Positions 13,301 through 64,000 are shown, counted from the stretch's first letter. The stretch: 64,000 nt of DNA from Patescibacteria group bacterium (GCA_041658665.1 JBAZZR010000003.1:68125-132124); one strand, 5' to 3'. Notes: generated from the sequence alone by a model not told the origin. A program made the numbers and translations.

Positions 13301-15946
13301 TGGACTATACTCCTCAGGTGATCTTTGCATTGTTAAGGCTTTAGATATTATATCTTTATTCTTCGTTTTAATAGCAATATCATAAATATCCAATAACATT
13401 GCCCCAGTCATTTTCCCCGACGCCGGCAGAAAATCATCATCAAAACAATAGTTAACCAGTTTTGTGTCGCCAATACTAACCGCTAAAAAACCTACTTTAA
13501 TAGCATCGCGTAAATTCGTTCTAACCGACAGTTTTTTGATTATTTTTTTAACAGTTTCTTTATCTTTAAGCGCCAGCGCCAAATCGCCAGCTCTAAAAAA
13601 CTCTTCCATTTTTAGGCACTGATCCATTACTTCTCTCGCTGAGTCCAGTAACTCCGTGTCGCCCAAACGATTAGCAATTGTTACAAAATCAGAATTATAA
13701 ATATTATTTTTTATTAACCGGCGATAAGTATCTTTATGATTAGTGGCGACGGCCACTTGAGTAGCGGCTAGCTCCTCGCCCATTTCAGTAAATTTTTGCA
13801 TCAAAACCACTGCCTCTTCTTCGGTAAATAAGGGTGGTCTTGATTCAACAACTTCAGTTTTATTTTTTTCAATTTCAAATTTCCCTAAATCAGGTCTTAA
13901 GGTATGAAGGATATTTAATAAATGAAGTTTGCGAGAAAGTTCTGGCGATTGATTTTGTCCCTGTTTATCTTTTTTATTTTTTAACTGCCAAACAAATGTT
14001 AGATAGTCTCCAGCTAAACCATGAGCGATAGAACCCTTGCTAACTCCTGAGGTCATAAACTCCTCCCGCATTTTCCAAGCTCGATCAGAATCAAGACCAG
14101 CTAAACCCTTAGCGATTGAACCTTTATCAACGCCTAAAACAATAAACTCTTCCCGCATTTTCCAGGCGCGATCAGAATCCAAGCCAGCCAGACTTACGGC
14201 AATGAAACCTTTATTAATTTCGCCTGAAGCCATAAGCTCCTCCCGCATTTTCCAGGCGCGATCGGAGTCAAGACTAGTAAGACTTAAAGCGATGGAATTT
14301 TCATCAATTGCGCCTGAAGCCATCAACTTTTCCCGCATTTTCCAAGCCCGATCGGAGTCTAAACCAGCCAGACTTTCGGCAATAGAATCTCTATCAACTT
14401 TTTCAGCTTTGTTTGAAGCCATAAGCTCATCACGTATTTTCCAGGCCCGATCAGAGTCCAGACTAACAAGACTTAAAACTATAACAGCTTTACTAGTTTT
14501 GTCTGAAGCCATAAACTCCTCCCGCATTTTCCAAGCCCGATCGGAGTCAAGGCCAGCCAGACTTAAAACGATAAAATCTATATTAACTTCACCTGAGGCA
14601 ATCAGCCTATCCCGCATTTTCCAAGCACGCTCCGAGTCTAGGCCAGCCAGACCTTGGGCGATAAGACTCCTGCTAACACCTGAATCCATAAGCTCCTCCC
14701 GCATTTTCCAAGCCCGATCGGAGTCCAGACCAGCAAAATTTCGGGCGATCAAATTTCTGTAAACACCTAAGGCCATAAGTTCCTCAAGTTTATCAAGGAT
14801 TTTTTCTTCACTAAGATATTTAGATTTTTCACTTTCACGCTTATTGGCTAAAGAAAAATCTCCCTGTTCATCAATTCTGAGCTGGCCGCCTAAACTCTGA
14901 ATTTCCTTAATCAGATTTTTTTGCGCCTGATCATTTTGCCGGTTAAAAGTAAGATCCAAGGGCTGATACCGAACAGTGGCAAATTTCTGAGCGGCGGCTT
15001 CAGTTAAATTAAATGTTTCTTTAATCTTGTCTAAATCGTCTTGGGATACAAAAGAGTCCCATTCTAAACGATCAATAATAGCGAGCGGAAGACGAGCGCG
15101 TAATTCTTCTAAAACAATCTCCCGCGCATTCTCTTTCCCGCGTTCTAAATTACGAACATAAGCTTCTAACCCCGTATGTTTATATTTTTCTCGCAAACCA
15201 GCGCTTGAGCCAAAATGTTCTTTGACTAATTTACTAATTCTATCTCCGTCAGTTTTTTTTATCTCGGCAAAAAGTATTTTTAAAACATCGCCGGAGTAAT
15301 AATTTTTTTCTAGCGTCGTTTTAATAAGTTCAATATTTTTTTCCCCTAAGCGCTCGCCGCTTGACCGGGGATCTTTTTCGCCAATTATTTCAATTTTTTT
15401 AGTACTTAAAAACGGTTCATAGGCCCGGTCAAGCTCTTGAATAATTTCCCGCTCCTGGCCATATTTTTTCGGCTTGGTAATTTCTCTACCGGCCTCAACC
15501 GCCTGGCCTAATTCAGCAAAATGCGTTAACAATTTTTTCGCGGCTTGTCTTTCGGGTTTTCCCTTAGCTTGAGACAAACCAATCGTCGCCACCTTCAAGG
15601 CATCTTCACTGTGTTTTAAATAAAATTCCGGCGCGGTAATAATCCGCGCGACATCACTAGACGTTAGACGCAAAGTTTCTACTACTTTTAACCCATCATC
15701 AATAGAATGTTCGAAAATACGGGAAACAACTTTAATCTGTTCTTCTTTAGAAAGTAATCGGCAATATTCCACGGCTTTTTTTAGAGCTAAATCTTTAACC
15801 TGAATAACATCAACCATCCCCTCTTTTAAAGACGTTTCAGTTTCTTGTTCAGTACGAGCCGCTCCCTTTATTTTATCTTCATCAACCGATTCGTTTAGAA
15901 CCTTCTTTTTAGGGCTCGCTGTTTGATTAATTAATTCTGTAAACAT
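10307..15946 (-). CDS. Giant (1879 aa) alpha-helical repeat protein with a C-terminal transglutaminase-like cysteine-protease core
   Basis: A single uninterrupted ORF with two internal repeat arrays. Transglutaminase-core triad context: GVCADFAMLTSALLRKAGFP (Cys codon 11054-11056), ANAHSTAFVLW and VFSVDGTP. I recognised no signal peptide or TM segment. Confidence 0.85.
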   Translation of the reverse strand: MFTELINQTASPKKKVLNESVDEDKIKGAARTEQETETSLKEGMVDVIQVKDLALKKAVEYCRLLSKEEQIKVVSRIFEHSIDDGLKVVETLRLTSSDVARIITAPEFYLKHSEDALKVATIGLSQAKGKPERQAAKKLLTHFAELGQAVEAGREITKPKKYGQEREIIQELDRAYEPFLSTKKIEIIGEKDPRSSGERLGEKNIELIKTTLEKNYYSGDVLKILFAEIKKTDGDRISKLVKEHFGSSAGLREKYKHTGLEAYVRNLERGKENAREIVLEELRARLPLAIIDRLEWDSFVSQDDLDKIKETFNLTEAAAQKFATVRYQPLDLTFNRQNDQAQKNLIKEIQSLGGQLRIDEQGDFSLANKRESEKSKYLSEEKILDKLEELMALGVYRNLIARNFAGLDSDRAWKMREELMDSGVSRSLIAQGLAGLDSERAWKMRDRLIASGEVNIDFIVLSLAGLDSDRAWKMREEFMASDKTSKAVIVLSLVSLDSDRAWKIRDELMASNKAEKVDRDSIAESLAGLDSDRAWKMREKLMASGAIDENSIALSLTSLDSDRAWKMREELMASGEINKGFIAVSLAGLDSDRAWKMREEFIVLGVDKGSIAKGLAGLDSDRAWKMREEFMTSGVSKGSIAHGLAGDYLTFVWQLKNKKDKQGQNQSPELSRKLHLLNILHTLRPDLGKFEIEKNKTEVVESRPPLFTEEEAVVLMQKFTEMGEELAATQVAVATNHKDTYRRLIKNNIYNSDFVTIANRLGDTELLDSAREVMDQCLKMEEFFRAGDLALALKDKETVKKIIKKLSVRTNLRDAIKVGFLAVSIGDTKLVNYCFDDDFLPASGKMTGAMLLDIYDIAIKTKNKDIISKALTMQRSPEEYSPSNDEIYHREEEFRMGLLSIAIKADDSALRIAQSLESEKDYEEAAKIFIALGDIAQARRIISQLRQDDNFASIAVITEFYYSEEGNRDDINDSKSSSSIETTGGIEKNARYFSEEEMKDLMQKCLKAKYFSSAAEIMVALDDRESAQNLIQECLKNDWLTSVADIIVALAAKDLESAKNIIFSQNIIQECLAGRCLYAAADMAVIIADNNPELAKDVMEKCLVEKGYLACAGRIEVALNDLESAKNIMYKYLEENNFISAVEVAVALAGKDPEFSQNIIFFESIIEGCFEHNLETAAADMAVAVASKNPELAKGAMEKCLATGYLGAAGKIMIALNDRESAQNILYKLLKNDRVIAAAEIAAALYSKNKNVFTSNRIIQSSGGQKDSDFDAEKLLVEINNYLEQESKIAKKKPKTLGDKLKKELQTSRAFVRSVNSVIKDSPEIFLNMLAARKSSRRGVGKLAAKVFPSILEKDQETWRGFSGYSGFESNTLNFGREPSPEDYLNPDSLLDSLAGGDPEKEYQEEVLKFREPLHELVVTGIFGKYNGSAWDSRYQFSVADISSEKTKDITITLPHVGQQTKLPKPVSGTIIKERVKAIKKGKELACETEFSPLGEGTVKDTKRAEEIIYSVRQNEIPREMRNVTASEYAIYKKQFVREYGDIMLTPLAELPEETDLFIESIKNKDPKEQVMAIENFVRQVSYYDKKNREVSPLKTGASLEDRFSIMESRVDELREKNKISLEGKKYAGVCADFAMLTSALLRKAGFPSGVLTGFMPNGKTATIANAHSTAFVLWPTARGGNEVFSVDGTPSGIEGISGASIVEKEKMRSEAIGSIVQDANKKLEEIMNIVKSNDLAAIKKLTNGDLETVVNTILKYETTGEDLFALQNVLDAYWYTPFSSSNMGSSKVKKEFEKFFEKELKTTSSSEVVNPGSQVFDLANKFIQKFEVKNGSESPEKAVRLFEQVIEATGQKLTIQERKVYIAIATYLKAKKMKGNEQ
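12205..12965 (-). repeat. Intragenic higher-order repeat: about 2.5-3 copies of a 294-nt (98-aa) unit, each made of three ~33-aa helical sub-repeats
   Basis: ccaattccgga recurs at 12370 and 12664, 294 nt apart. Protein units run NPELAK..MEKCL..ALND(L/R)ESA(K/Q)NI..A(V/I)ALA. Confidence 0.8.
14013..14770 (-). repeat. Intragenic tandem array: 8 copies plus 1 partial copy of a 29-33-aa repeat (LAGLDSDRAWKMREELMASG...)
   Basis: The DNA core (c)cgcattttcca(a/g)gc(c/g)cgatc(g/a)ga(g/a)tc recurs at 14067, 14154, 14244, 14334, 14433, 14523, 14613 and 14700, with periods of 87-99 nt. The core is conserved and the linker is variable. Confidence 0.9.
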
Positions 15947-21029: not shown

Positions 21030-21620
21030 CTATAAATTATCCTGAACAAATTTCCAATTTAATAAATTATGCAAAACCGCTTCCACAAAATCCGCGCGGC
21101 GATTCTGATAGTCTAAATAATAAGAATGTTCCCAAACGTCGAGAGCCAAAAGAATTTTTAGGCCGGACGTTAGAGGATTATTAGCATTAGCCGTCTTCAT
21201 TATTTTCAAAACTTCTCCCTCACGAACCAACCAAACCCAACCGCTCCCAAACTGTCCTAAAGCCGCGGTCTTAAACTGAGCATAAAAGTCAGTTAAAGAG
21301 CCAAAAGATTTATTGATCAAGTCTAAAACGGCCGCCGTCGGTTCTATTTTAGTCTCGGCCGGCGCTAAGCATTGCCAAAAAATCTGATGATTATAGCTTT
21401 GGGCGGCGTTATTAAAAATAGCACTCAACGCGGGGTTGTTAGCGGTTTTCACGACTATATCGACTAAAGACATATTTTCAAATTCCGTACCGATAATCAG
21501 CTTATTTAAGTTATCCAGATAAGCCTGGTGGTGTTTGCCATAATGAAATTCTAAAGTACGAGCCGACATATACGGCTCTAAAGCCGACTGTTCATAAGGT
21601 AATATTGGTAAAGTAAACAT
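21030..21620 (-). CDS. Fe/Mn superoxide dismutase
   Basis: HHQAY and DVWEHSYYLDYQNRR motifs. Confidence 0.93.
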   Translation of the reverse strand: MFTLPILPYEQSALEPYMSARTLEFHYGKHHQAYLDNLNKLIIGTEFENMSLVDIVVKTANNPALSAIFNNAAQSYNHQIFWQCLAPAETKIEPTAAVLDLINKSFGSLTDFYAQFKTAALGQFGSGWVWLVREGEVLKIMKTANANNPLTSGLKILLALDVWEHSYYLDYQNRRADFVEAVLHNLLNWKFVQDNL

Positions 21621-39841: not shown

Positions 39842-39870
39842 TTGACATTTATCGTCTTTTAAAGTAAATT
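39842..39870 (+). promoter_or_regulatory. Sigma-70-type promoter (TTGACA-17 nt-TAAATT) for the pyrD-like gene
   Basis: -35 at 39842-39847 and -10 at 39865-39870, followed by the AAGGAG ribosome-binding site at 39906-39911. Confidence 0.45.
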
Positions 39871-39916: not shown

Positions 39917-40867
39917 ATGAAAATTGGAAATATTGATGTGACTAGCTGTTCTTTCGGCTCTGGATCATTAAGTTTTTTCGGTAATGGCTACTGGTACAGC
40001 CATTGGCTCAAATTTCTAATACCAGAATTTAAAGAAATTCTAGACAGTACTACTTTCGTCGCTAAAACAGCGACCTTAGACCCTCGAGAGGGACACATGG
40101 CTCTCGACGAAAACTTTCAACCGCGGGAACTGATACCGAAATGTATTAAAGTTTACCCCTTTAAAGGAGTAATCCAGAACGCCGTCGGACTAAGTAACCC
40201 CGGATTTAATGTGTTACTGAGAACTCGGCGCTGGCAAGAAATTACGCGGCCGTTTTTTCTTTCTTTCATAACCCTAAGGGACACACCGCAAGAAAGGATA
40301 GATGAGGCTAAAAAATTTTTTAATATTTTAGAAAATAATCTGCCTAATTTTAAGGCTCCAGTCGGTTTACAGATTAATGTTTCGTGCCCTAACACTCAGC
40401 ACGACACAAGACATTTAGCCGAAGAAGCTTTAACGATTTTGTATCTAGCTTCTCGCCTTAATATTCCCCTCGACCTAAAGATTAATATCTTAGTGAGCGC
40501 CGATCTTATCACCGAAATAGAAAAAAGTGGGTTCTGCGATAGTTTAACCGTCAGCAACACGCTACCATATGGCAGCCCCGGCGTCGACTGGAAAAAACTT
40601 TTTGGCCGAGACTCCTCACCCCTCCAGCAATTTGGCGGTGGCGGCTTATCAGGAAAACCTATACTGCCGTTAGTTCTCTGGAAAATCTTAAATTTACGAT
40701 CAGCCGGCATTACTCTACCTATTAGAGGCAGCGGCGGAATATTATCAGTTAGTGACGTAGACCGCATGAAAGCCGCGGGCGCGAGCGCCATTGAAATCTC
40801 CAGCGTCTTAATTTTAAGACCCTGGCGCGTTCCAGCGATTATCAAACGCGCTAATCAAATTTTTTAA
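39917..40867 (+). CDS. pyrD: Dihydroorotate dehydrogenase-like FMN TIM-barrel protein (class 1-like)
   Basis: NAVGLSNPG, INVSCPN (catalytic Cys context), GGGLSGKPILP and GSGGILSVSDVDRMKAAGASAIEISS. Confidence 0.75.
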   Translation: MKIGNIDVTSCSFGSGSLSFFGNGYWYSHWLKFLIPEFKEILDSTTFVAKTATLDPREGHMALDENFQPRELIPKCIKVYPFKGVIQNAVGLSNPGFNVLLRTRRWQEITRPFFLSFITLRDTPQERIDEAKKFFNILENNLPNFKAPVGLQINVSCPNTQHDTRHLAEEALTILYLASRLNIPLDLKINILVSADLITEIEKSGFCDSLTVSNTLPYGSPGVDWKKLFGRDSSPLQQFGGGGLSGKPILPLVLWKILNLRSAGITLPIRGSGGILSVSDVDRMKAAGASAIEISSVLILRPWRVPAIIKRANQIF

Positions 40868-40885
40868 ATGTTATTTAAATTAGTA

Positions 40886-40915
40886 AAAGACCGCTCAGGA
40901 AACGGTCTTTTTTTT
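40886..40915 (+). terminator. Intrinsic terminator of the pyrD-like gene
   Basis: AGACCG-ctcaggaaa-CGGTCT followed by T8. Confidence 0.7.
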
Positions 40916-40949
40916 AAAAAAAGAGTGTGTGGTTATTAGCCTCACACTC
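40916..40949 (-). terminator. Intrinsic terminator of the pyrF-like gene
   Basis: The minus strand reads GAGTGTG-aggctaataacca-CACACTC followed by T7. Confidence 0.6.
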
Positions 40950-40982
40950 GGAAAAGATACATTTGATTTTTAAAATAATTAT

Positions 40983-42161
40983 TTAAGCAGCTAAGGGAAA
41001 ATCGGGATAGAAAGGATAAACAATTCCCATTTTCTGTACTTCTGGGGTTTCATAGGCCGCTTTCTCATTGATTCTGAACCGAGTTATGGCGTTCACCAAA
41101 TCAACTTGTAAATTATCAACTTGACCACTACCCCCAAGATTTTCCATCCACGGATACATAGTGCCGCGGGAGGAAGAAAAAATAGCGCCCTGACCGTTCC
41201 ATTTTCCGATCCGAATAAGTTCCGGCATAACTCGAGAGAATTTACCGTCTTGTGCTCCAAAACCAGGATTTAATGTTGTCGTCGAAGGAAAAGCCTTCCG
41301 AATACTACCATCACAGGTATGAGTCGCGCCGACAACTAAACCGATTGATGATAAACCGTCATATTCAAGATCAAAATTATCACTAATTGTATTCATATCA
41401 TCAACATTAGTCATTTGTAGCGTTGTATTATATGCACAAAGTTTTTGTTCTTGATATTCCGGTCCACTAGGATTAGAGCTTTTATTAACGACTATTATCC
41501 CTTTTCCGGCATTCATTAATTTCAAACCTAAACCAGGTTTTTCTGGGGTTCCTAAAACCATAATATCTCTTCCCATCCAAGGAGTGACATTTATAATATC
41601 GAAATCGAACGGAGCATAGTCTACGCCCCAACTATCTTTTAGATTACCGAGAAGTCCAACAAAATAAGCCACCTGAGTAGTGTCGATATCACCACGTTTG
41701 CAATCCAGAATTCGAATCAATCTTATTTTTTCCATCCTCTGCCGTTCTTGGATGTATTGATTTATTCTAGAGAGAAGAACCATTCCAATCGGCCCAAATT
41801 GTTCATAAAAGGCTATTTGGAGCTTAAACACTCTAATATTACAGAAATGGACCAAAACATTGATAACCTTAATCAGATAAGCTTCAACGCAAGCTAATAA
41901 ATATGAAAACTCATTAGATCGATTGCGCTCACCGGACATACCTGGAATTAAATTTAAGATTTGACGATATACGTCTTGCGTTAACCCTAACACATATTCT
42001 TCTTCGGTTGTCTCAACTACGGATGTCCTAACTACCGAACCATAAACAGCTATATTGTCCCGATAGCTGCCGAAAGGATGAATATCCAATCCAGCGCAGT
42101 ATAAAGTATTTTGTTTTCTCTGCACTTCGGCTAGTTCTACAAAATTATTTTTCGTTAACAT
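40983..42161 (-). CDS. pyrF: Orotidine-5'-phosphate decarboxylase, type 2, with insertions (392 aa)
   Basis: All type-2 OMPDC blocks are visible: AGLDIHP, KLQIAFYEQFG, LDCKRGDIDTT, INVTPWMG, VVNKSSNPSG, GLVVGATH and LNPGFGAQDG. A strong AAAGGAG ribosome-binding site is present. Confidence 0.8.
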   Translation of the reverse strand: MLTKNNFVELAEVQRKQNTLYCAGLDIHPFGSYRDNIAVYGSVVRTSVVETTEEEYVLGLTQDVYRQILNLIPGMSGERNRSNEFSYLLACVEAYLIKVINVLVHFCNIRVFKLQIAFYEQFGPIGMVLLSRINQYIQERQRMEKIRLIRILDCKRGDIDTTQVAYFVGLLGNLKDSWGVDYAPFDFDIINVTPWMGRDIMVLGTPEKPGLGLKLMNAGKGIIVVNKSSNPSGPEYQEQKLCAYNTTLQMTNVDDMNTISDNFDLEYDGLSSIGLVVGATHTCDGSIRKAFPSTTTLNPGFGAQDGKFSRVMPELIRIGKWNGQGAIFSSSRGTMYPWMENLGGSGQVDNLQVDLVNAITRFRINEKAAYETPEVQKMGIVYPFYPDFPLAA

Positions 42162-42192
42162 GATAACTCCTTTAATGAAATGAGTGAAAAAA

Positions 42193-42918
42193 TTACAACT
42201 TGATCTTTCCCGTTAAAATATCCCAATTTTTATCTTTTTTTGGTTTATATCTTAACGAGCCGGCAGCGCACAACGGGCATTCTTTCTGATCAACGGCCCA
42301 GACTTCTTTAGCAATCAGAGAAATAACTTGGCGTTCGCCGCACATATTTATCCGCGGCATTAAATGTTTCGGGCGATAAACTAAAGCGCCCACCAGGGGG
42401 ATCCAATTAACCGGTTCTTTGTTTCCCTCATCAACGGCTAGCTGAACAGCGTTGGTAGTCTTTGAGGTAGTGATTAATTCCTCTATCTGCAAAACCGTCT
42501 CGCCGGCCGGAATAGTTCTTCTAACCCACAACATCTTATCCTTATCAGCCGGATCTTTTTCCGTAAAAAACATCCGCGTCGCCCCTAAAGCGCGAGCCAC
42601 ATCATGACCGAAGGTTATGCCGGCCATCGGTGAAGCGATCACCCAATCAATAGGCTGATCACTAATTGTCTGCCGTATTTTCTGCGCTAATTGATCGGCT
42701 AAAATTTCCGATAGATTAAGATACTCCAGCACGCGCAAGCAATCAAAAAAAGCATTGCTGCACATACCTGTGGTTAATTCAGCATGCGGGTCTTTAGGGT
42801 CACCACTATGCCCCCAATATGCTTCACAAGTACCAAACCAGGACAATATTTCCAGCGGATCAATATACAGTCCTCCGGCAAATCCCGGTTTAAGATTAAT
42901 AAGTGATTTTAGGTCCAT
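42193..42918 (-). CDS. Type I phosphoribosyltransferase (orotate PRTase-like)
   Basis: PRPP loop VLQIEELITTSKTT. DWVIASPMAGITFGHDVARALG resembles the OPRT hood/loop region. C-terminal CPLCAAG motif. A GAGGAG ribosome-binding site is present. Confidence 0.65.
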   Translation of the reverse strand: MDLKSLINLKPGFAGGLYIDPLEILSWFGTCEAYWGHSGDPKDPHAELTTGMCSNAFFDCLRVLEYLNLSEILADQLAQKIRQTISDQPIDWVIASPMAGITFGHDVARALGATRMFFTEKDPADKDKMLWVRRTIPAGETVLQIEELITTSKTTNAVQLAVDEGNKEPVNWIPLVGALVYRPKHLMPRINMCGERQVISLIAKEVWAVDQKECPLCAAGSLRYKPKKDKNWDILTGKIKL

Positions 42919-43036: not shown

Positions 43037-43062
43037 AAAAAAAACAAGACCTAATTAGGCCT
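43037..43062 (-). terminator. Intrinsic terminator after murF
   Basis: The minus strand reads AGGCCT-aatt-AGGTCT, then tg, then T8. Confidence 0.5.
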
Positions 43063-43100
43063 CATTAAAAATACCCGCTCGTAAATTTTTATTATAAGTT

Positions 43101-48850: not shown

Positions 48851-50314
48851 TTATTTTCTTTTCAAAATTTTAATAATTCCTTGATCAGCATTAACCTCAA
48901 CCTCATCGCCATCGTTTAAAATCTGGGTAGCAATCTTTGTCCCGATAACACAAGGGATTTTTAATTCCCGAGAAATAATCGCGGCATGAGAGGTAATCCC
49001 GCCTTCATCCGTAATTATCGCCGCCGCTAGCTTCATCGCTGGTACCATTTCCGGCCGAGTCATTGAGGAAACCAAGATATCCCCCTTTTCCATATTAACC
49101 ATATCATGAATCTTTAAAATTTTTTTTACTCTACCCCGCGCCCGTCCTAAGGAAGCGGTTAAACCTTTTAATTCCTGTTCCGATTGCTGATCCTTAAAAA
49201 AATAAGCAAATATCTGCCGATAATCTCGGCCAGAGAATAAATAAAAACCGGCCGCCGTCTGTAAACAAGCGCTTCCCTTTATTCTCGACTTTAAAACCTG
49301 ACGAGAAATTTTGCCGCGCAAGCAATCGGCCACTTCCGGAAAAATTAAATATTTCAAATAAACCAAAGAAATTTTTGTCCGCCGAGAAATTTCCTCTAAA
49401 AATTTAAATTGATAAAAATTAGCTATCAAAACATACTTCTTTCTCGTATCTTGTATACCAAAAAATTCGTCCATAAGCCATAAAAGAGTTTTTTGCCAAA
49501 TCGTTAATTTATATTTTTTAATTATCTTCTGTTTCTTGCTCCAAGCTTGTTTTAAACTACCCGTCCGTCCGATTCTCCGGTTCTTTAAACCCGCAATAAT
49601 TAATTGTTTAAAATCCGTTCCCGTGAGTCTAACGCCGCGGGCATAATTATTAGTAATATAAAAATACTTAGCGGCATGAGCTGATAATTCTTGCTCCTTT
49701 AATTTTTTACCAATCGCTAGCTTCTGAATTAGTTTTTCACGCGCGAGCGCCTCTTCTTCAATAAACGATAAATGCCGAGTCGCTAATAAAGCCGGAAAAT
49801 CTTGGGCAAAATTAGGGCCCAAAACTTTTTTGAATTCCGGCACTAAATATTTTTCCGCGGGCATAGAAATAGCGTCGCCGAGCACCATAAAATATTTAAA
49901 CTCTTCCGAGTAGGCTTCATAGAAAGAATTATAGGCCTTCACTAAATCCTGATTAGACAGTTTAGCGAGGTCTAAATGATCTATTTTTTTTAGGACTATT
50001 TCAAAAATTTTAATTTTTCGAGCCCAAGCTTTTTTTAAATTAGCCAAATAATTCTTATTTTTCTTTAACCGCTTAAAAAACTCCTCTCGAATAAAAGTTA
50101 AATCATTTTCATTCCAATACCAATGAATATAATTATCTTTAGCAAAAAAAATAGTCCTGACCGCCCGCTGGCTTAAAAAACTCTGCACCGCTGGACCAGT
50201 TTGACCGACCGGAAAAAAAGTATGAAAAATCCCATGGAAACCTTTATAAATCCACTCGGAATCAGCTAAATTATATTTCTTGATAAGCGAATCAATTTTA
50301 GGCTTAGTTATCAT
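48851..50314 (-). CDS. Protein with a C-terminal PEP-utilising-enzyme mobile (phosphohistidine swivel) domain and an unknown N-terminal ~400 aa (paralog 2)
   Basis: The C-terminus reads GDILVSSMTRPEMVPAMKLAAAIITDEGGITSHAAIISRELKIPCVIGT. I recognised no ATP-grasp or PEP/pyruvate TIM-barrel motif. Confidence 0.75.
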   Translation of the reverse strand: MITKPKIDSLIKKYNLADSEWIYKGFHGIFHTFFPVGQTGPAVQSFLSQRAVRTIFFAKDNYIHWYWNENDLTFIREEFFKRLKKNKNYLANLKKAWARKIKIFEIVLKKIDHLDLAKLSNQDLVKAYNSFYEAYSEEFKYFMVLGDAISMPAEKYLVPEFKKVLGPNFAQDFPALLATRHLSFIEEEALAREKLIQKLAIGKKLKEQELSAHAAKYFYITNNYARGVRLTGTDFKQLIIAGLKNRRIGRTGSLKQAWSKKQKIIKKYKLTIWQKTLLWLMDEFFGIQDTRKKYVLIANFYQFKFLEEISRRTKISLVYLKYLIFPEVADCLRGKISRQVLKSRIKGSACLQTAAGFYLFSGRDYRQIFAYFFKDQQSEQELKGLTASLGRARGRVKKILKIHDMVNMEKGDILVSSMTRPEMVPAMKLAAAIITDEGGITSHAAIISRELKIPCVIGTKIATQILNDGDEVEVNADQGIIKILKRK

Positions 50315-50316
50315 AT

Positions 50317-51813
50317 TTATTTTAGAATAATTATTCGCCCTTTATCGAGATCAAGTTCAACTTCGTCTCCATCTTTTAAAATTTCGGTGGCCACCTTTGT
50401 ACCGATGATGGCGGGAATCTTTAGTTCGCGAGAAACAATGGCCGCATGACATAACATTCCACCTTCATTAGTAATAATGGCTTTAGCCTTATAAATAGCC
50501 GGCATAAATTGCGGCATAGTTTGTCCGGCTACTAATATTCTCCCCTCGGGAAAATTATAGATTTTTTTATCAATATCTTTTTCTCCCCATTTAAAAACAA
50601 ATACTCTACCTCGAATCTTACCGCGGCCACTAGCGGCCTGGCCAAAAAACTCCGACACTGAAACTATCTCTTCTGCTAATTCCGCCTGATATTTTCTTTC
50701 GGCTTCTTTACCCCAAAAAATTTCATACCCTTTTTCCGGTGTTATTAGAGCTAAGATATTACCGCCACGCCGTTTACGATGTTCCGCGGTTAATTTGAAA
50801 TTTCCCTTTAACAATTTAATAAATTCAGGAAAAGTTAAATTAAACACATCTTCTTTCGGCAAATTGAATATAGCGGCCGTTCTAGATACTAATAGCGGCC
50901 CTAAATAAAGGAGAAAGGCCCAACCTTTGAGATGGGCTTCTAGTCGCAACCAACTTAAAACTCTAATAGTCTTTATTTTTTCTAGTAACGACTGAGGAAG
51001 TTGATAAAACTCCGCAATCTTAAGCTGACTATTCCTGGTTTTTAGACCTCGACTACTTATTTCTTTTAATTCATGTTCTAAAATTGATAAGCTCTTAGTT
51101 GATTCAGCTTGTAATAATTTTTGGTAATGTTTTTTATCCCAAGTCCCAAACTGCGAACTAGCCGGTAAATATTTATAAAGATTTATCTGACAAGCTATCC
51201 GGGTAGACAATTCTTCTGGGTCTAACTTTCCTTTCTTATAAGGAATAGAAATTTTTTGTAACCAGTTTTTTCTCTCTTCCTCTAGACAAGTCGGCCGATC
51301 CGATTTAATAAGGGCTAAAAATTTCTCCTGTAATTTATTGTCGGGTACATACTTATTAAGTTCTCTTAGCAAAAAACGATTAAGCTTAGCCGTATACTCT
51401 GGTTGAGATAAAAAATAATAGCCCATCGATTCATTATAAAGAAGCGCCGATTTTTTAACTAAATCGAGAATCTGTTTGGCCGCCAATCGATTAACTGGAA
51501 AATGGTCAATTTCTTTTTTTAATTGGTCAACTTCACTGACTATCTCTAAAGTTTTTTTAATATATTCCTTAACTTTTTTTTGATTCGTAAAAAATTTATA
51601 ACCAATTTCCGCTTTTTTCTCCTCATCCTCGGTCCAAGTATGTTCACTAAAAACCCGATTCTGACGGTCTAGATAACTAGCATAACTCTCTTTACAACCC
51701 GTTAACTTCTCAGTAATCAAAAATGAATCATAATAAGATAGTTCGCCAAAAATAAAAGTTACCGATTCGGCTTTACTAGTATAATACTTATTCCAAGACA
51801 TAATTTTATCCAA
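50317..51813 (-). CDS. Protein with a C-terminal PEP-utilising-enzyme mobile (phosphohistidine swivel) domain and an unknown N-terminal ~400 aa (paralog 1)
   Basis: The C-terminus reads GRILVAGQTMPQFMPAIYKAKAIITNEGGMLCHAAIVSRELKIPAIIGT, with LCH in place of the usual TSH. Confidence 0.75.
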   Translation of the reverse strand: MDKIMSWNKYYTSKAESVTFIFGELSYYDSFLITEKLTGCKESYASYLDRQNRVFSEHTWTEDEEKKAEIGYKFFTNQKKVKEYIKKTLEIVSEVDQLKKEIDHFPVNRLAAKQILDLVKKSALLYNESMGYYFLSQPEYTAKLNRFLLRELNKYVPDNKLQEKFLALIKSDRPTCLEEERKNWLQKISIPYKKGKLDPEELSTRIACQINLYKYLPASSQFGTWDKKHYQKLLQAESTKSLSILEHELKEISSRGLKTRNSQLKIAEFYQLPQSLLEKIKTIRVLSWLRLEAHLKGWAFLLYLGPLLVSRTAAIFNLPKEDVFNLTFPEFIKLLKGNFKLTAEHRKRRGGNILALITPEKGYEIFWGKEAERKYQAELAEEIVSVSEFFGQAASGRGKIRGRVFVFKWGEKDIDKKIYNFPEGRILVAGQTMPQFMPAIYKAKAIITNEGGMLCHAAIVSRELKIPAIIGTKVATEILKDGDEVELDLDKGRIIILK

Positions 51814-58441: not shown

Positions 58442-61400
58442 TTATTTCTTAGCGCCGCTATAAGAAACCGCCCGAACAACATTCCAAGCTAAAGCATTGA
58501 CTGGCTGATGGCCATAGACCCAGCGGAAACTTTTAATAGCCGCCGCTTCGCTCGCTAAATTACGTTGCGTCGGCAATAATCCATAAGCGATAACCATAAT
58601 CGCGTTAGAGTCGGCCTTATTAGCCATCACCGCGTTACGGGCATAGACTTTTTTAAACTCTAATTTCGCCTGATTTTCTGCCGCTATATTTCGCTCACTC
58701 GGCCAGCGACCACTAGCAATCTTCAACACATCAGACCATTCTCCTCCAGCATTTGGTAATTTACCATAAGCCTGATAATAAGAATTAGTAACTCCTGCTC
58801 GTTCACCAACGCCGAGACGCTGCGTAGTCGGGGTACCGTAGACGATAAAATCATTGATACTTTCTTTTTCATCCGTCGTAATTTTTTTATCTTGCCCTAA
58901 AATTGTTTTGTATTTTACTAGACTCGCCTGTTCACTAAGAGCATTAGCTTTTTTACCTAAATATGTTAACAGGGTTGCCGTATTATTAGCGCTAACAATT
59001 CCAGACTCAGTAGCAATATTTCCTAAAACATTACTAATCGGGGAAACCGGAGCCGGAGGAGTCGAAGGAGTTGAAGGAGTTGAAGCGGGCGGAAGAGTCG
59101 AAGTAGTAGGAGGGGTAGAAGTAGCAACAGTGGTTTGACAAGTCCTTTGAGCAGCTGCTTGTTGAGCAGTGATTAAAGTACAACTACTAGGAGTACTAGT
59201 AAGAACGGAACGGGTTTGAATATTGCCGAAGCAAGAGGCGCCCCAGTCTGAATAAGTAACTGAACTACAATAGACAGTGGCCGGACTACCGCCACCAGTA
59301 CTGCCGGAAGAAGAGCTACTAATAGTATAAACAGAAGTAGCCACTGGACCAGCGGAATTATTATTATAACAGGCTAAACTTTTAATAGTTTTGGTAGAAG
59401 TAATAGAAATAGCTCCGGAGTATAGAGTACCGGCGCTACAAGTAGTAGCGTTAGAACAGCTAGGTGTTGAACCATCAACCGTATAACAGATAGCGGTAGA
59501 ACCAGCCGCGGCGAGAGTAACGCTCTGTGTACTGGAATAGGTACTAGCGGCCGGAGACGGGGTCGGGGCGGCAACCACCACGCCGTCCATATTGCCGACA
59601 TTACTATTTAGACCGGTGTTTAAATCGCCAGTGACGGAGGAGGGTATAGTTGTAGTCGTAGAAGCCACCGCCGAAGCAGCCGACTCGCCTGAAGCATTCA
59701 AGGCCGAAATTTTATAGTAATAAATGGTACTAGTAGCGAGCCCCGAATCAGAATAAGTCGTAGTGAGTCCCGACGCAACAGTTGGTTCAGATCCTATTCT
59801 TGGGAAATCTCCTGACCCAGAAGTATTTCTATATATATCATAACTAGTTGCTCCGCTTACCGCACTCCAGGAAAGATTAATTTGAGTCGGCCGATAGAGC
59901 GTCGCCGCTAATCCCGAAGGTGTGGCGGGAGCATCGTCGGCCGGAACAGTCGGCGCGAATGAGGATAAATGGGATACTGTTCCAGAAAGTGTTACTGCCG
60001 GATCGGAATCTAAATCGTTTAGCGAAGCGGCAGTGGCCGGATGTAAAGTTACTGAAGTAGGAATTTCCACCCAGTTATTAGCGGTAGAGTCCCAATAAGA
60101 AATTTTCATTCCCTGGACCTGAGAAAAAGAAAGACCTTGTTCTTCAATCTCAGCTTTGGTCACAGTGAATTCAATCGTAATACTGCCCGACAAGGTTGTA
60201 ATATTTTGGTTAGAGCTGTTACGCGCGGTAATATCACGAGCATTGCCAATAACTTTTGTAGAGGCAACGGTCGGAACATTAGTCGTATTTTTTACTTCGA
60301 CTGTACCAGCGCTCGAACCAGTCCCTAAAGAATTTTTAGGAAAATCAACTTTAATTCCATCCTCCTGAATAATTCCCCCAGAAGAGGGCGTAATTGGTGA
60401 ATTTTTTAAATTTGCAGAAAAACCGACAATTGTCGCTAGAGTTATATTTGTGCCCGTCGCCGGCGCGGTAACTAATGTCGAAGTCGAATTGTAGCCATCA
60501 TAAGCGGCCTGAACGTTCCAATTACCACTGCCAACATTTAAAGAATAAGTACCGTTAGCATCGGTTGATCCGCCTGACCAGCCACCAGTATTATTTTGTG
60601 CCCAAACTCGCGCGTTAGTAACCTTAGTTACTCCGTTCGGGAGATAAACGGTTCCCGCTATAGTACTCTCAGCGGCGGAAAGGGTTAAATCTTTACCAGT
60701 TAAAGGCGCCCCACTAACTGTTACTGTAATTTTATTACCAATATAACCCGGCTTACCGACGCCGATATCATAGGTGCCATTTCTTAATTTCAAAGTATAA
60801 GTTCCATCATCCGCTGTTTGCGCACCACCACCGCCATTTGATCCCGAGGTCCAAATCCAGGCGCCGCCATTACTATCGCTACCCGTTACCGTCCCCGAGA
60901 CAGAATAAAATCCTCCTAAAGTATATTCAATAATGCCGTCGTTAGCCGTTCCACTCGCTTCAGTAAATGTCCCATTACTATTTACCACAATAGTATTTTG
61001 CACTAACGGTCCATAGCCCGGAATACCTCCTTCCACGTAATAAGTGGTTGACCCAGAACCAGGACGAGGGATATCAATCTGATATTCTCGATAAAGAGAG
61101 CCCCCCGCGGCCACATCAACATCCGAAAATCCGCCGCCCTGATCACTATGAACGCCAATAAATGCTTGAGAAAAATCAGTCGCCGGAGAAATCCGAACCT
61201 TAATAGTCGAGGCGAGTAAAGTAATATTCTGTACGGTGCTAGTGCTAATTGTTCCTAAATTTTCTTTATACACTTCGCCTTTCCCGGGTAATCCGACATG
61301 AATCCAACGATTACTACCGCCAGAAATACGCGCCGAATATGCCCCTCCGGAATCAGTGCCGCCACTACCCAACATTTGTCCACGCTCCCCCTCGGTAATA

Positions 61401-64000
61401 AATATAAAAGCTTGCTGTAAGCCGACGCCACCCTTAGTAACCGTCCCAGACACCGTATAATTATTAGACGAACTAACATTAAAGTTAACCGTCGGATGAG
61501 TTTCGGAACTGACAACAATTCCCTGTTGTTCACCTAAAAACCCAAATGACTGTGAATTCGCGCCAATATGATAATTATTTCCCGGGCCAACATACATTTT
61601 ATAATATCCTTGACTGTCCGTTTGAGCATTACCATTTCCTGGACCGCCTTCTAGCCAAGCATAGAGAGAAACATTAGCGAGACCATTACCCGCCGCGTCT
61701 TTAACATAACCTTCAATAAAATCAGAAGGCGGAGCGATTATAATTGTCGGGCCTTTATCGGGCTGACCGACTAAATAAGTATCATCAACTTCAACCTGCA
61801 CTTCAACCGGAAAAGGCATATTATCTCCGCCTACTCCTATTTTCCACATTCCTCTAGAAACATTAAGAGTAAAAGTGCCATTCTCCGCTACTTGCGCACC
61901 AGTTCCCTTTCCTTCTTGCGGTTGATAGGCAAAGACCCATAATTTACCTCGCTCTTCGCTACCAAAATTACCTGACGGTTTTTCAACATGACCAACGATT
62001 TTATGCGTGGCTGCAGAAAAAATAAAATTGTTTGTAGATGTTAAGACGGAATCAGAAATAGTCGCCAACTGCGATTCGGGATCGGTGAATGAAGTTGAGG
62101 CCGTAATACCACCAACCGTTGAAGGCTGGATATGTGCTTCAATTCTATAAACACCATTAGAGGAAACACCAATCGCGTAATTAGCGACACAACTACCGTT
62201 CGTCGTAAAAAAAGCCGGATTAGCTTCTTTAAAACCCGTGCTAATACTCTCGGGCGCAGCAAACACGACTACTCTTTTATTTCGTCCGCCGTCGCTACAA
62301 GACGAACCAAGCGTCATCGTCCCAGAAATAATTCGCGTCGTCGCGGGCATAAATAAATTTTGAGTCGTTCCCGTGTTGACTTCTTTACCGGAAGAATTTA
62401 AATGCGTTCCGGTTATATCATAAGCCCAAGTATAGCCCATAGAAGAAACCCCCGTAATAGAAAATCGATTAGTATCGGCGTCATAAGTCATATATCCATC
62501 ACCAACAGCGTAAACCGTCTCACCATTCGTTCCACCAATAACGATCCGAATATTAGAGTTGTCTTCATCCGTCATCGGCGTCGAGGTTCCCGCTGAATAA
62601 TATACTTTTGCCGTATAGGTGCCAGCGATATCAAAAAAAGTATTTTGTCCCATGTCATTCATTAGATCACCAGCCTTAATATTGACTGGGCCACCTTGCG
62701 CGCCGTCAGGGACTTTTACTACAATAGATGAGGTCGACCAGGTTGCCCCGGTATAATCTGCTTCGATCGGAGGAAGCGGACCAGTTTGCTGGCTGAATCC
62801 ACCAGAGAAGAGAACTTTATGATTATTATCACCAATACTGCCCTCTCCGAGAGTACCAAACCCCGTACCAGTAATTGTTACCGTCGCGCCTACGGCGCCA
62901 GATCGAGGGCTTATATTAGTAATATTGGGCAGACTAAGAACTTGAACGGGCATACTTGAACTAGCATAGGCGGTGAGTCTATTATTTGCTCCGCTTAAAT
63001 CCGTAATTGTGGTAGAAGTCGGGACAGAAAAAGAAACGGTGCCTGATAAATTAAGACCGCGAATAGTTATTTTCGTTCCCGAAAAATCTATAAAGGGATT
63101 ACCCGCACCGCCACAAGTCGTCGAGGTAGCGTTGATAATATAATTAGGGGCACAGTTCATCGCTTGCATCCCGTCGACATTTTCACTTAAATCTAAAATA
63201 ATTCTATCCGTAAACGCAGCGGCAGAACTAATGTATGGAGCCGCGTCGGCCACTACCGTAACCAAATTTGATAAATTACCCGCCTGATCACTAACTCGCG
63301 TTTTTACGCTTGTATAAGTCGTGGTATTAATTGAAATTGGCGCAAAATTACCCGCTGGCCCTAACGTAGCTTGCCCTAAAAACGTTGTGCCATCCATATC
63401 ATAAACTTTTACTACGCTACCCTCCATACCAATAGACGAGCCATTCCTCGCTAGAATCTGATTATTCCCTAAAATGAAATTATCACCTAAAATATTAGCC
63501 GGTGCGATTGCATCCAAACGAAGCGGCGCCGTAGAAACAGCCGAGATTGTTGGCGATACATCGCTAGTAGTAATACTATCAGAAGCCATCGAGATTATAA
63601 ATTCATGCGTATCAGAATTTAAGTCGGCAGCTGTTTTAAAAACAACAAAAAACACGCTCGGTGTTTCAGAGAGTGTTATAGAATCCTTTAAAGTAAGCGC
63701 AGTTAAAAATAATCCAGAACCAGTCCAAACGGGAGTAGAGGAAGCTTCTAAAAATCCACTAGCTTCACTATATAAAGAAATCCCTGAACTGCTGCTCGTA
63801 GCTAGCGCCGCTAAATCGCTAGTAGAAAACCCCGTACTGCCCGCGTCGGCCACTCCGACGGTCACTGCCGTAAGTGTTTCCCCGGTACCAGTTAAAGAAA
63901 TTCGGATAGCGCTTGTTGTAGCACTATTCCCTTTCACCCAAGTAGGCGAAGCGATCAGATTAGTAGTAGTAGCGCTCACCGCGGCGTGGGCGGAAGAAAA
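58442..64000 (-). CDS. Giant secreted/surface multi-domain protein (>1852 aa; N-terminus outside the window)
   Basis: The reading frame stays open to the window edge (FSSAHAA/VSATTT looks like the end of a signal peptide). Motifs seen: IPT/TIG-like PNITNISPRSGAVGATVTITGTGFG; several carboxypeptidase-regulatory-like units (GYVKDAAGNGLANVSLYAW..TDSQGYYKM; GTVYLPNGVTKVTNARVWAQ..TDANGTYSL); FN3 (INLSWSAVSGATSYDIYRN..YYYKISALNASGES); a Pro/Thr linker; and a duplicated C-terminal module. Confidence 0.85.
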   Translation of the reverse strand, partial: FSSAHAAVSATTTNLIASPTWVKGNSATTSAIRISLTGTGETLTAVTVGVADAGSTGFSTSDLAALATSSSSGISLYSEASGFLEASSTPVWTGSGLFLTALTLKDSITLSETPSVFFVVFKTAADLNSDTHEFIISMASDSITTSDVSPTISAVSTAPLRLDAIAPANILGDNFILGNNQILARNGSSIGMEGSVVKVYDMDGTTFLGQATLGPAGNFAPISINTTTYTSVKTRVSDQAGNLSNLVTVVADAAPYISSAAAFTDRIILDLSENVDGMQAMNCAPNYIINATSTTCGGAGNPFIDFSGTKITIRGLNLSGTVSFSVPTSTTITDLSGANNRLTAYASSSMPVQVLSLPNITNISPRSGAVGATVTITGTGFGTLGEGSIGDNNHKVLFSGGFSQQTGPLPPIEADYTGATWSTSSIVVKVPDGAQGGPVNIKAGDLMNDMGQNTFFDIAGTYTAKVYYSAGTSTPMTDEDNSNIRIVIGGTNGETVYAVGDGYMTYDADTNRFSITGVSSMGYTWAYDITGTHLNSSGKEVNTGTTQNLFMPATTRIISGTMTLGSSCSDGGRNKRVVVFAAPESISTGFKEANPAFFTTNGSCVANYAIGVSSNGVYRIEAHIQPSTVGGITASTSFTDPESQLATISDSVLTSTNNFIFSAATHKIVGHVEKPSGNFGSEERGKLWVFAYQPQEGKGTGAQVAENGTFTLNVSRGMWKIGVGGDNMPFPVEVQVEVDDTYLVGQPDKGPTIIIAPPSDFIEGYVKDAAGNGLANVSLYAWLEGGPGNGNAQTDSQGYYKMYVGPGNNYHIGANSQSFGFLGEQQGIVVSSETHPTVNFNVSSSNNYTVSGTVTKGGVGLQQAFIFITEGERGQMLGSGGTDSGGAYSARISGGSNRWIHVGLPGKGEVYKENLGTISTSTVQNITLLASTIKVRISPATDFSQAFIGVHSDQGGGFSDVDVAAGGSLYREYQIDIPRPGSGSTTYYVEGGIPGYGPLVQNTIVVNSNGTFTEASGTANDGIIEYTLGGFYSVSGTVTGSDSNGGAWIWTSGSNGGGGAQTADDGTYTLKLRNGTYDIGVGKPGYIGNKITVTVSGAPLTGKDLTLSAAESTIAGTVYLPNGVTKVTNARVWAQNNTGGWSGGSTDANGTYSLNVGSGNWNVQAAYDGYNSTSTLVTAPATGTNITLATIVGFSANLKNSPITPSSGGIIQEDGIKVDFPKNSLGTGSSAGTVEVKNTTNVPTVASTKVIGNARDITARNSSNQNITTLSGSITIEFTVTKAEIEEQGLSFSQVQGMKISYWDSTANNWVEIPTSVTLHPATAASLNDLDSDPAVTLSGTVSHLSSFAPTVPADDAPATPSGLAATLYRPTQINLSWSAVSGATSYDIYRNTSGSGDFPRIGSEPTVASGLTTTYSDSGLATSTIYYYKISALNASGESAASAVASTTTTIPSSVTGDLNTGLNSNVGNMDGVVVAAPTPSPAASTYSSTQSVTLAAAGSTAICYTVDGSTPSCSNATTCSAGTLYSGAISITSTKTIKSLACYNNNSAGPVATSVYTISSSSSGSTGGGSPATVYCSSVTYSDWGASCFGNIQTRSVLTSTPSSCTLITAQQAAAQRTCQTTVATSTPPTTSTLPPASTPSTPSTPPAPVSPISNVLGNIATESGIVSANNTATLLTYLGKKANALSEQASLVKYKTILGQDKKITTDEKESINDFIVYGTPTTQRLGVGERAGVTNSYYQAYGKLPNAGGEWSDVLKIASGRWPSERNIAAENQAKLEFKKVYARNAVMANKADSNAIMVIAYGLLPTQRNLASEAAAIKSFRWVYGHQPVNALAWNVVRAVSYSGAKK

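Follow-up and report, generated by a model that had tools for sequence, protein, structure and literature searches.

Layout of the locus

The 64,000-nt stretch of DNA analysed here (the window) comes from a metagenome-assembled genome (MAG) of the Patescibacteria, or Candidate Phyla Radiation (CPR), and corresponds to positions 4346-68345, reversed, of the ENA contig ERZ27247322:k141_210086 (137,351 bp). It carries three genes whose products resemble the last three enzymes of uridine 5'-monophosphate (UMP) synthesis: a dihydroorotate dehydrogenase (DHODH)-like protein (PyrD), a phosphoribosyltransferase (PRTase) of the orotate phosphoribosyltransferase (OPRT) kind (PyrE) and a long orotidine 5'-monophosphate (OMP) decarboxylase (OMPDC; PyrF). 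We consider it likely that the trio consists of genuine, lineage-typical versions of these enzymes. Open reading frames and matches to Pfam and NCBIfam profiles place the genes at the positions, on the strands and in the families given to them by an earlier reading of the sequence alone (Table 1). The three frames are real genes, as identical proteins are on record in the NCBI MAG and on the ENA contig; the DHODH-like protein and the decarboxylase are identical to MFA5886998.1 and MFA5886999.1 (WC863_04490 and WC863_04495), respectively.

Table 1 Genes and predicted signals of the locus (window positions), with the fusion loci of two relatives.
Feature	Position	Strand	Details
pyrD-like (DHODH-like)	39917..40867	+	316 aa; stand-alone class-1-type
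pyrF, long-form type-2 OMP decarboxylase	40983..42161	-	392 aa
pyrE, Thermus/Helicobacter-type OPRT	42193..42918	-	241 aa; 31 nt upstream of pyrF
Intrinsic-terminator-like hairpin and T-run, putative end of the pyrD transcript	40885..40915	+	AAAAGACCG-loop-CGGTCTTTT, then T-run; read from sequence
Intrinsic-terminator-like hairpin and T-run, putative end of the pyrE-pyrF transcript	40916..40949	-	GAGTGTGAGG-CTAATAA-CCACACACTC, then TTTTTTT
Terminator-like hairpin 3' of murF	43043..43066	-	10-pair stem and T-run; divides murF from the pyrE-pyrF unit
Sigma-70-like promoter candidate for pyrD	39842..39870	+	TTGACA-17-TAAATT; 10/12 matches; 47 nt 5' of ATG
PyrK-PyrD fusion and PyrC	L010 7038-9975; L014 12224-15183		FAD/NAD/Fe-S domains and DHO_dh

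The genes pyrE and pyrF are predicted to form one transcription unit; pyrD, which converges on them, would be transcribed separately and end at a terminator of its own. The coupling of pyrE and pyrF is suggested by the short spacer between them, in which an AAAGGAG ribosome-binding site can be read, by a terminator of their own and by the terminator that lies upstream, after murF. The convergent spacer between pyrD and pyrF measures 115 nt and holds both terminator-like hairpins, one per strand. An AT-rich spacer of 180 nt with the ribosome-binding site GAGGAG precedes pyrE. Promoter-like sites are no commoner here than in shuffled sequence; the one ahead of pyrD is a consensus match and a candidate only.

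In GC content, GC content at third codon positions (GC3) and codon usage, the three genes stay within 1.7 standard deviations of the other 48 genes of the window. A recent horizontal transfer of the trio was considered and rejected, the composition giving no signal of foreign origin.

Conserved residues and folds

The proteins were scored with Pfam and NCBIfam profiles against the curated cut-offs, and AlphaFold (AF2) models of the DHODH-like protein and the decarboxylase were matched to the PDB with Foldseek. The DHODH-like protein, the one that diverges most, clears the cut-off of Pfam DHO_dh (61 against 27 bits). Its family is represented by 1085 database matches at E ≤ 1e-3, mostly from Patescibacteria and also from Nitrospirota; the best 120 relatives are 311-351 aa long and 44-66% identical. 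The usual name of such relatives is 'hypothetical' at NCBI and 'dihydroorotate dehydrogenase' at JGI. A metagenome scan with the family alignment returned mostly ordinary PyrD (24-30% identity), because one of the patterns was the generic NxSCPN motif, along with 11 loci of the family itself, three of them informative.

Across 28 diverse members, residues K50, N88 (in NAVGL), N154, S156, C157, P158, N159, K188, N214 and T215 are invariant, as are the GGGGLSG and GGI motifs. The catalytic cysteine in N-x-S-C-P-N, the four orotate-binding asparagines and two lysines are all kept, and align with the motifs of the L. lactis enzyme DHODB. The AF2 model has a pLDDT of 90.1, and its top 50 matches in the PDB are all DHODHs, with no dihydropyrimidine dehydrogenase (DPD) among them.

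DHODHs are conventionally divided into classes 1A, 1B and 2 (PMC10395836). The window protein is nearest to the catalytic subunit of class 1B (L. lactis PyrDB; PDB 1EP1 and 5UE9; PRK07259), with which it shares the TIM barrel (Foldseek E 1e-15, TM ~0.67) and the N-x-S-C-P-N, NAxGL, K, SNT, GGLSG and GGI motifs. The identity to PyrDB is just 21-23%, however, and the window protein exceeds the class-1B profile by about 25 residues, has family-specific motifs at its N-terminus (SGxLxFFGxGYWY) and C-terminus (LRPWR), and lacks an adjoining PyrK, the iron-sulfur/FAD partner. No PyrK-like sequence was found by tblastn or among Pfam-annotated gene calls in the window or in contig positions 410-76424. 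Since no such partner lies nearby, membership of class 1B appears unsupported by the gene content.

With the fumarate-dependent class 1A (Trypanosoma, Lactococcus A) the protein has in common a stand-alone, soluble form and the catalytic cysteine. Structure matches to class 1A, and likewise to class 2, follow closely on those to class 1B (E ~1e-13), but the sequence likeness to class 1A is weaker than to class 1B (28 bits with PRK02506), and an assignment to class 1A would be one of likeness only. As the matches to all three classes lie so close together, the family looks in its modelled structure like a deep branch, outside any single class. The absence of PyrK suggests that the enzyme probably works as class 1A does, alone and with a soluble acceptor; fumarate, O2 or another soluble compound may serve.

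The decarboxylase scores just above the cut-off of Pfam OMPdecase (27.3 against 27 bits). It belongs to a clade of long enzymes with about 88 full-length relatives of 365-404 aa, of which all named ones come from Patescibacteria (Moranbacteria, Falkowbacteria, Parcubacteria). Beyond the clade the similarity falls from E 1e-62 to 1e-22, where ordinary type-2 PyrF of 304 aa begin. That its catalytic blocks are complete, as the sequence-only reading had it, is confirmed by an alignment of 25 long members, in which K113 and Q115 (FK.Q.AFYE), D153-x-K155-x-x-D158 and P299-G300...Q304 are invariant. The phosphate-binding arginine of SSSRG is present in the window enzyme and in most of the others.

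The AF2 model of the decarboxylase (pLDDT 89.3, pTM 0.91) matches type-2 OMPDCs in its first 27 PDB hits (Toxoplasma, Plasmodium, Anaerococcus, Streptomyces, Leishmania), followed by type-1 enzymes; TM values on type-2 targets are 0.7-0.8. With the type-2 enzymes (TIGR02127; 3R89 from A. prevotii, 4MJZ from Toxoplasma, Plasmodium) it shares the fold and the K...Q.AFYE, DxKRGDI, PGxGAQ and SR motifs, but it is indeed, as had been noticed from the sequence, about 100 aa longer than usual when set against 3R89 (290 aa). The surplus comprises about 47 residues at the N-terminus, 32 internal ones and 23 at the C-terminus, where the terminal helix is longer. The OMPDC fold usually has one helix between β1 and β2; the model has three there, at residues ~33-107. 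These extra elements are peripheral in the model, away from the active-site loops. The related identities of 3-keto-L-gulonate-6-phosphate decarboxylase (KGPDC) and hexulose-6-phosphate synthase (HPS) were considered and rejected: in NCBIfam the protein matches pyrF models alone, with no KGPDC or HPS model at E ≤ 0.1, and in nearly all loci its gene adjoins that of an OPRT.

The closest solved relative of the PRTase is the OPRT 4PAW (E 2.7e-11). The motif that binds phosphoribosyl pyrophosphate (PRPP), VLQIEELITTSKTT, aligns with ILVCEDIITTGKSA of 4PAW, with EE for ED and S for G. Also present and aligned with 4PAW are the TG..S..FF, FTE(K/R), acidic-acidic-x-ITT and C-terminal CPLC motifs, all shared with the Thermus/Helicobacter-type OPRTs (TIGR01367). 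The window protein differs from 4PAW in having about 40 extra N-terminal residues and a cysteine in the xGxxS motif in place of histidine. CPLC had been read from the sequence as an extra motif, CPLCAAG; this was a misreading, since 4PAW, other relatives and fused OMPDC-PRTase proteins carry it too, and judging by the alignments it is a hallmark of the Thermus/Helicobacter-type OPRT subfamily.

All NCBIfam matches of the PRTase at E < 1e-4 are OPRT models; two weaker ones (E 4e-4 and 0.03) are other PRTases. The sequence-only reading had left room for a PRTase acting on a base other than orotate. We rejected such an identity: the motifs align with those of a bona fide OPRT, the strong profile matches are all OPRT, and the fusion and operon evidence agrees.

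That evidence includes natural gene fusions. A HMMER search of 1.84 billion cluster representatives returned 332 relatives of the PRTase at E ≤ 1e-10, four of which are fusions of 466-486 aa with a type-1 OMPDC as the N-terminal and the PRTase as the C-terminal half, an arrangement resembling UMP synthase. The OMPDC half of fusion P0482 reaches 195.9 on PRK00230, above the cut-off of 193, and fusions P0429 and P0500 exceed the cut-off of TIGR01740. Their C-terminal half carries EELITT...CPLC.G, as does the window PRTase, which is thus of the same type; in the window, by contrast, the two activities would reside on separate genes and the decarboxylase is a long type-2 enzyme rather than type 1. 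Because this type of PRTase is fused to bona fide OMPDC domains, it is tied to OMP metabolism.

Gene neighbourhoods in relatives

Around the long OMPDC, 22 Patescibacteria loci were taken from one genome-collection scan. In at least 17 of them an OPRT-type PRTase is its neighbour, adjacent or no more than about 1 kb away. The PRTase subtype varies: it is that of the window in loci L003 and L006, pyrE_Therm-like in L012, a bona fide PyrE in L011 (TIGR00336, 120.7 against a cut-off of 106.8), and one of three further OPRT-like subtypes in other loci. Two loci, L010 (on a 487-kb contig of Parcubacteria) and L014, show the order PyrK-PyrD fusion (609 aa), PyrC, long PyrF, PyrE. The PyrC of these two loci, a dihydroorotase of the dimeric type, has no Pfam match and matches TIGR00856 at 104 and 194 bits; the PyrD of the fusions is canonical, unlike the DHODH-like protein of the window.

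The DHODH-like family has its own links to pyr genes. The complete 3.27-Mb genome of the nitrospirotal Ca. Magnetomonas plexicatena (CP049016.1) encodes a homologue with 49% identity, then PyrF, then a Thermus-type PyrE. The PyrF passes its cut-off (221 against 193 bits); the DHODH-like homologue, like the window protein, falls below that of PRK07259 (72 against 269). The operon thus combines the same types of PyrD and PyrE as the window, but its host is free-living, its PyrF is a canonical type-1 enzyme of 235 aa, and all three genes lie on one strand.

These links bear on a suggestion of the sequence-only reading, that all three enzymes have been turned to another base or nucleotide; a modified pyrimidine would be an example. 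The strong divergence of all three proteins and the surplus length of the decarboxylase would be consistent with it. Yet every substrate-contacting residue is as in the canonical enzymes, the structure matches are DHODHs and OMPDCs only, and the additional OMPDC residues form peripheral helices between β1 and β2 and at the C-terminus, not active-site loops. Moreover, homologues of each protein are linked, through a fusion or an operon, to canonical PyrF and PyrE that pass their thresholds. The suggestion is unsupported, and we regard such a recruitment as highly improbable.

In five sequence-verified cases the DHODH-like gene directly adjoins pyrC: L046 (Falkowbacteria), the metagenome loci L056, L057 and L061, and L136. 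About ten more pairs of PyrC and DHODH-like protein come from contigs of equal length and probably share a contig. In L135 (GCA_028696995.1, 1-10948), pyrC lies 150 bp from the DHODH-like gene on the opposite strand; within 10 kb there are also a large purL, a purN-like gene and a fused OMPDC-PRTase of 502 aa, the PRTase half of which is pyrE_Therm-like. The L135 MAG seems to have retained part of each de novo nucleotide pathway.

Gene order shifts between close lineages. L003 (71% OMPDC identity) keeps the backbone murF, pyrE, pyrF, rmlD, rmlA, with pyrD absent from the site. In L004 (90% identity), pyrF is followed by pyrD on the opposite strand and then rmlD, as in the window. In L134 (60% identity), pyrD, pyrE, pyrF, rmlD and rmlA share a strand, and a reverse-transcriptase gene lies upstream. 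L136, whose PyrE, PyrF and PyrD are 62%, 58% and 52% identical to those of the window, has, in a span of 5.3 kb, pyrF and pyrE on one strand, an IS30-like transposase gene, and then pyrD and pyrC on the opposite strand. Since pyrD and pyrE-pyrF have come together in two or more different orientations, the three genes would seem to be functionally coupled. The window trio is, to judge from these neighbourhoods, one arrangement of a pyrC/D/E/F set that has been reshuffled repeatedly, often beside mobile elements.

Genes for reverse transcriptases (RVT_1) and for the IS30-like transposase (rve/HTH_38) directly flank pyrD, pyrE and pyrF at L134 370-1560 and at L136 419-1297 and 3499-4509; such elements may explain the differing order of pyr genes between close lineages. 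At L019 1461-3863 the long OMPDC gene is split in two by a transposase gene of the IS256/Mutator family (PF00872, E 5e-12), and is apparently being lost in that lineage.

Probable role in pyrimidine synthesis

Together, residues, folds, fusions and neighbourhoods argue for the last three steps of UMP synthesis. PyrD, an FMN enzyme that stands alone and has a catalytic cysteine, would convert dihydroorotate to orotate; PyrE, a Thermus-type OPRT, would make OMP from orotate and PRPP; and PyrF, an OMPDC of type 2 in which additional helices are inserted between β1 and β2, would yield UMP. Since the contig also carries a CTP synthase gene (pyrG), about 7 kb outside the window on the side of position 1 (~75.6 kb; L050 19839-20627), UMP may flow onward to CTP. 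Related Patescibacteria have a pyrC-pyrD-pyrE-pyrF set, in some scattered and in others variously clustered, and the trio would be its local form. With pyrC, the gene of the preceding enzyme, kept next to these genes in relatives, the locus seems to serve ordinary pyrimidine synthesis rather than a new pathway.

Several observations weigh against this assignment. The profile scores bear out the divergence first noticed from the sequence: the best NCBIfam model for the DHODH-like protein is that of class-1B PyrD, PRK07259, at 63 bits against a cut-off of 269 (TIGR01037: 50 against 270), and for the PRTase it is TIGR01367 (pyrE_Therm), at 55 against 150.25; the decarboxylase falls just short of TIGR02127 (pyrF_sub2), at 103.9 against 110.6, and the PRTase is also below the cut-off of Pfam Pribosyltran (21.3 against 26.3). 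The NCBI annotation pipeline, PGAP, labels both MFA5886998.1 and MFA5886999.1 'hypothetical protein'. In the DHODH-like protein, residue 295 (window 40799-40801) is a serine in the window and in its 93%-identical relative of L004, where the other aligned members have glycine or alanine, mostly glycine; the C-terminal motif concerned, 'IEIGS/T', corresponds in the alignment to the 'VGT' with which L. lactis DHODB binds the FMN phosphate. Class 1B, the nearest class, normally needs PyrK, yet none is encoded within ~76 kb. In the literature we found no published activity for any member of the three subfamilies; papers on CPR and dihydroorotate, orotate or pyrimidines and on new DHODH classes offer general statements and nothing on these subfamilies. 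Lastly, the genes for the early steps are missing around the locus: none of pyrB, pyrC, carA and carB occurs among the Pfam-annotated gene calls of contig positions 410-76424, and a search of a 5.8-billion-protein database with a Falkowbacteria PyrC gave, among the best 120 matches listed, none with the WC863 tag or near MFA58869xx.

As residues, fold and context agree with the assignments while the scores miss their thresholds, the decarboxylase barely straddling them, we take the three proteins to be divergent members of known enzyme kinds that stand outside the curated equivalogs.

Part of the same evidence could point to the DHODH-like protein being another FMN-dependent TIM-barrel oxidoreductase, similar to DPD, which would leave pyrE-pyrF alone as an orotate salvage pair. 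Its score far under every curated PyrD model, the 'hypothetical' label and the missing PyrK would fit, as would its separate, convergent transcription and the lack of its gene at the corresponding position in L003, a 71%-identical relative. Such an enzyme would hardly be expected, though, to hold the orotate-binding asparagines, the catalytic cysteine and both lysines invariant in 28 members, to match DHODHs and no DPD in its top 50 structures, or to adjoin repeatedly both pyrF-pyrE and pyrC, the gene for the maker of the DHODH substrate. We judge this alternative improbable and retain PyrD as the assignment.

Source of dihydroorotate

The sequence-only reading had described the trio as isolated, with no pyrB, pyrC or carAB in the 64 kb. 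The latter holds: tblastn finds no pyrB, pyrC, carA or carB in the window, and the absence extends to about 76 kb of the contig. As a positive control, an E. coli PyrB query matched Verrucomicrobia loci. The isolation is real in the window lineage but breaks down in relatives, where pyrC adjoins the same genes; since it adjoins the same type of DHODH in related Patescibacteria, a self-contained three-step module becomes less likely.

It could be that the organism lacks pyrB, pyrC and carAB altogether and uses the trio to turn dihydroorotate or orotate from its host or community into UMP. The missing early genes mildly favour true absence. Besides the empty ~76 kb of the 137-kb contig and the PyrC search, about 30 Patescibacteria loci with long OMPDC or DHODH-like genes showed no pyrB, and in the window, L004 and L134 pyrD has parted from pyrC and now lies beside pyrE-pyrF. 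De novo nucleotide synthesis is reported to be lacking in most Patescibacteria, with scattered exceptions (10.64898/2026.06.21.733656; PMC11809585); by KEGG/eggNOG annotation, 93% of their genomes are unable to make nucleotides (preprint 10.64898/2026.06.21.733656).

On the other side, relatives L136 and L135, with the same three gene types, have pyrC by pyrD, and no candidate orotate or dihydroorotate transporter is seen in the window. The PyrC search did list the PyrCs of neighbouring genomes, but it is a weak negative, resting on the best 120 matches listed, several of them without accession; the MAG may also be incomplete, and was not found among GTDB representative genomes. A cell would have little reason to retain PyrD if it did not make dihydroorotate itself, and orotate, not dihydroorotate, is the intermediate commonly excreted. 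With PyrD, which implies an internal source of its substrate, retained and pyrC linked to it in relatives, it is more likely that the organism encodes its own PyrC elsewhere, whether or not together with PyrB, than that it takes up an intermediate, which we hold to be rather unlikely. Dihydroorotate would then most likely come from the organism's own PyrC/PyrB.

Doubtful in similar measure is a scenario in which the early steps are truly lost and the deep-branching, PyrK-independent DHODH uses an acceptor suited to a quinone-less fermentative symbiont. If the early steps are indeed lost, the locus would be an example of host dependence at the level of an intermediate, orotate or dihydroorotate, and more interesting for it.

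On the preferred reading, the locus shows one Patescibacteria lineage retaining the three final steps of UMP synthesis, and relatives retaining four. Genes this divergent and labelled 'hypothetical' may be missed in metabolic reconstructions, so that the pyrimidine capacity of CPR bacteria may be under-counted. The value of the locus lies in better annotation and in three well-populated subfamilies without a known characterised member: a stand-alone, PyrK-less DHODH, a long type-2 OMPDC and a divergent Thermus-type OPRT.

Other observations in the window

Two tandem paralogues of about 490 aa, encoded at 48851-50314 and 50317-51813 (minus strand), contain one recognisable domain only, the PEP-utilising 'mobile' domain at the C-terminus (PF00391, 83-88 bits); their N-terminal ~400 residues match no Pfam family. 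Giant open reading frames of about 1850-1880 aa at 10307-15946 and 58442-63979 (minus strand) give faint or weak matches (transglutaminase core; CarboxypepD_reg, fn3, CHB_HEX_C), and probably encode surface proteins. A gene for an Fe/Mn superoxide dismutase (21030-21620, minus strand) lies, in this reduced genome, amid the glycolytic genes for glyceraldehyde-3-phosphate dehydrogenase (GAPDH), enolase and pyruvate kinase.

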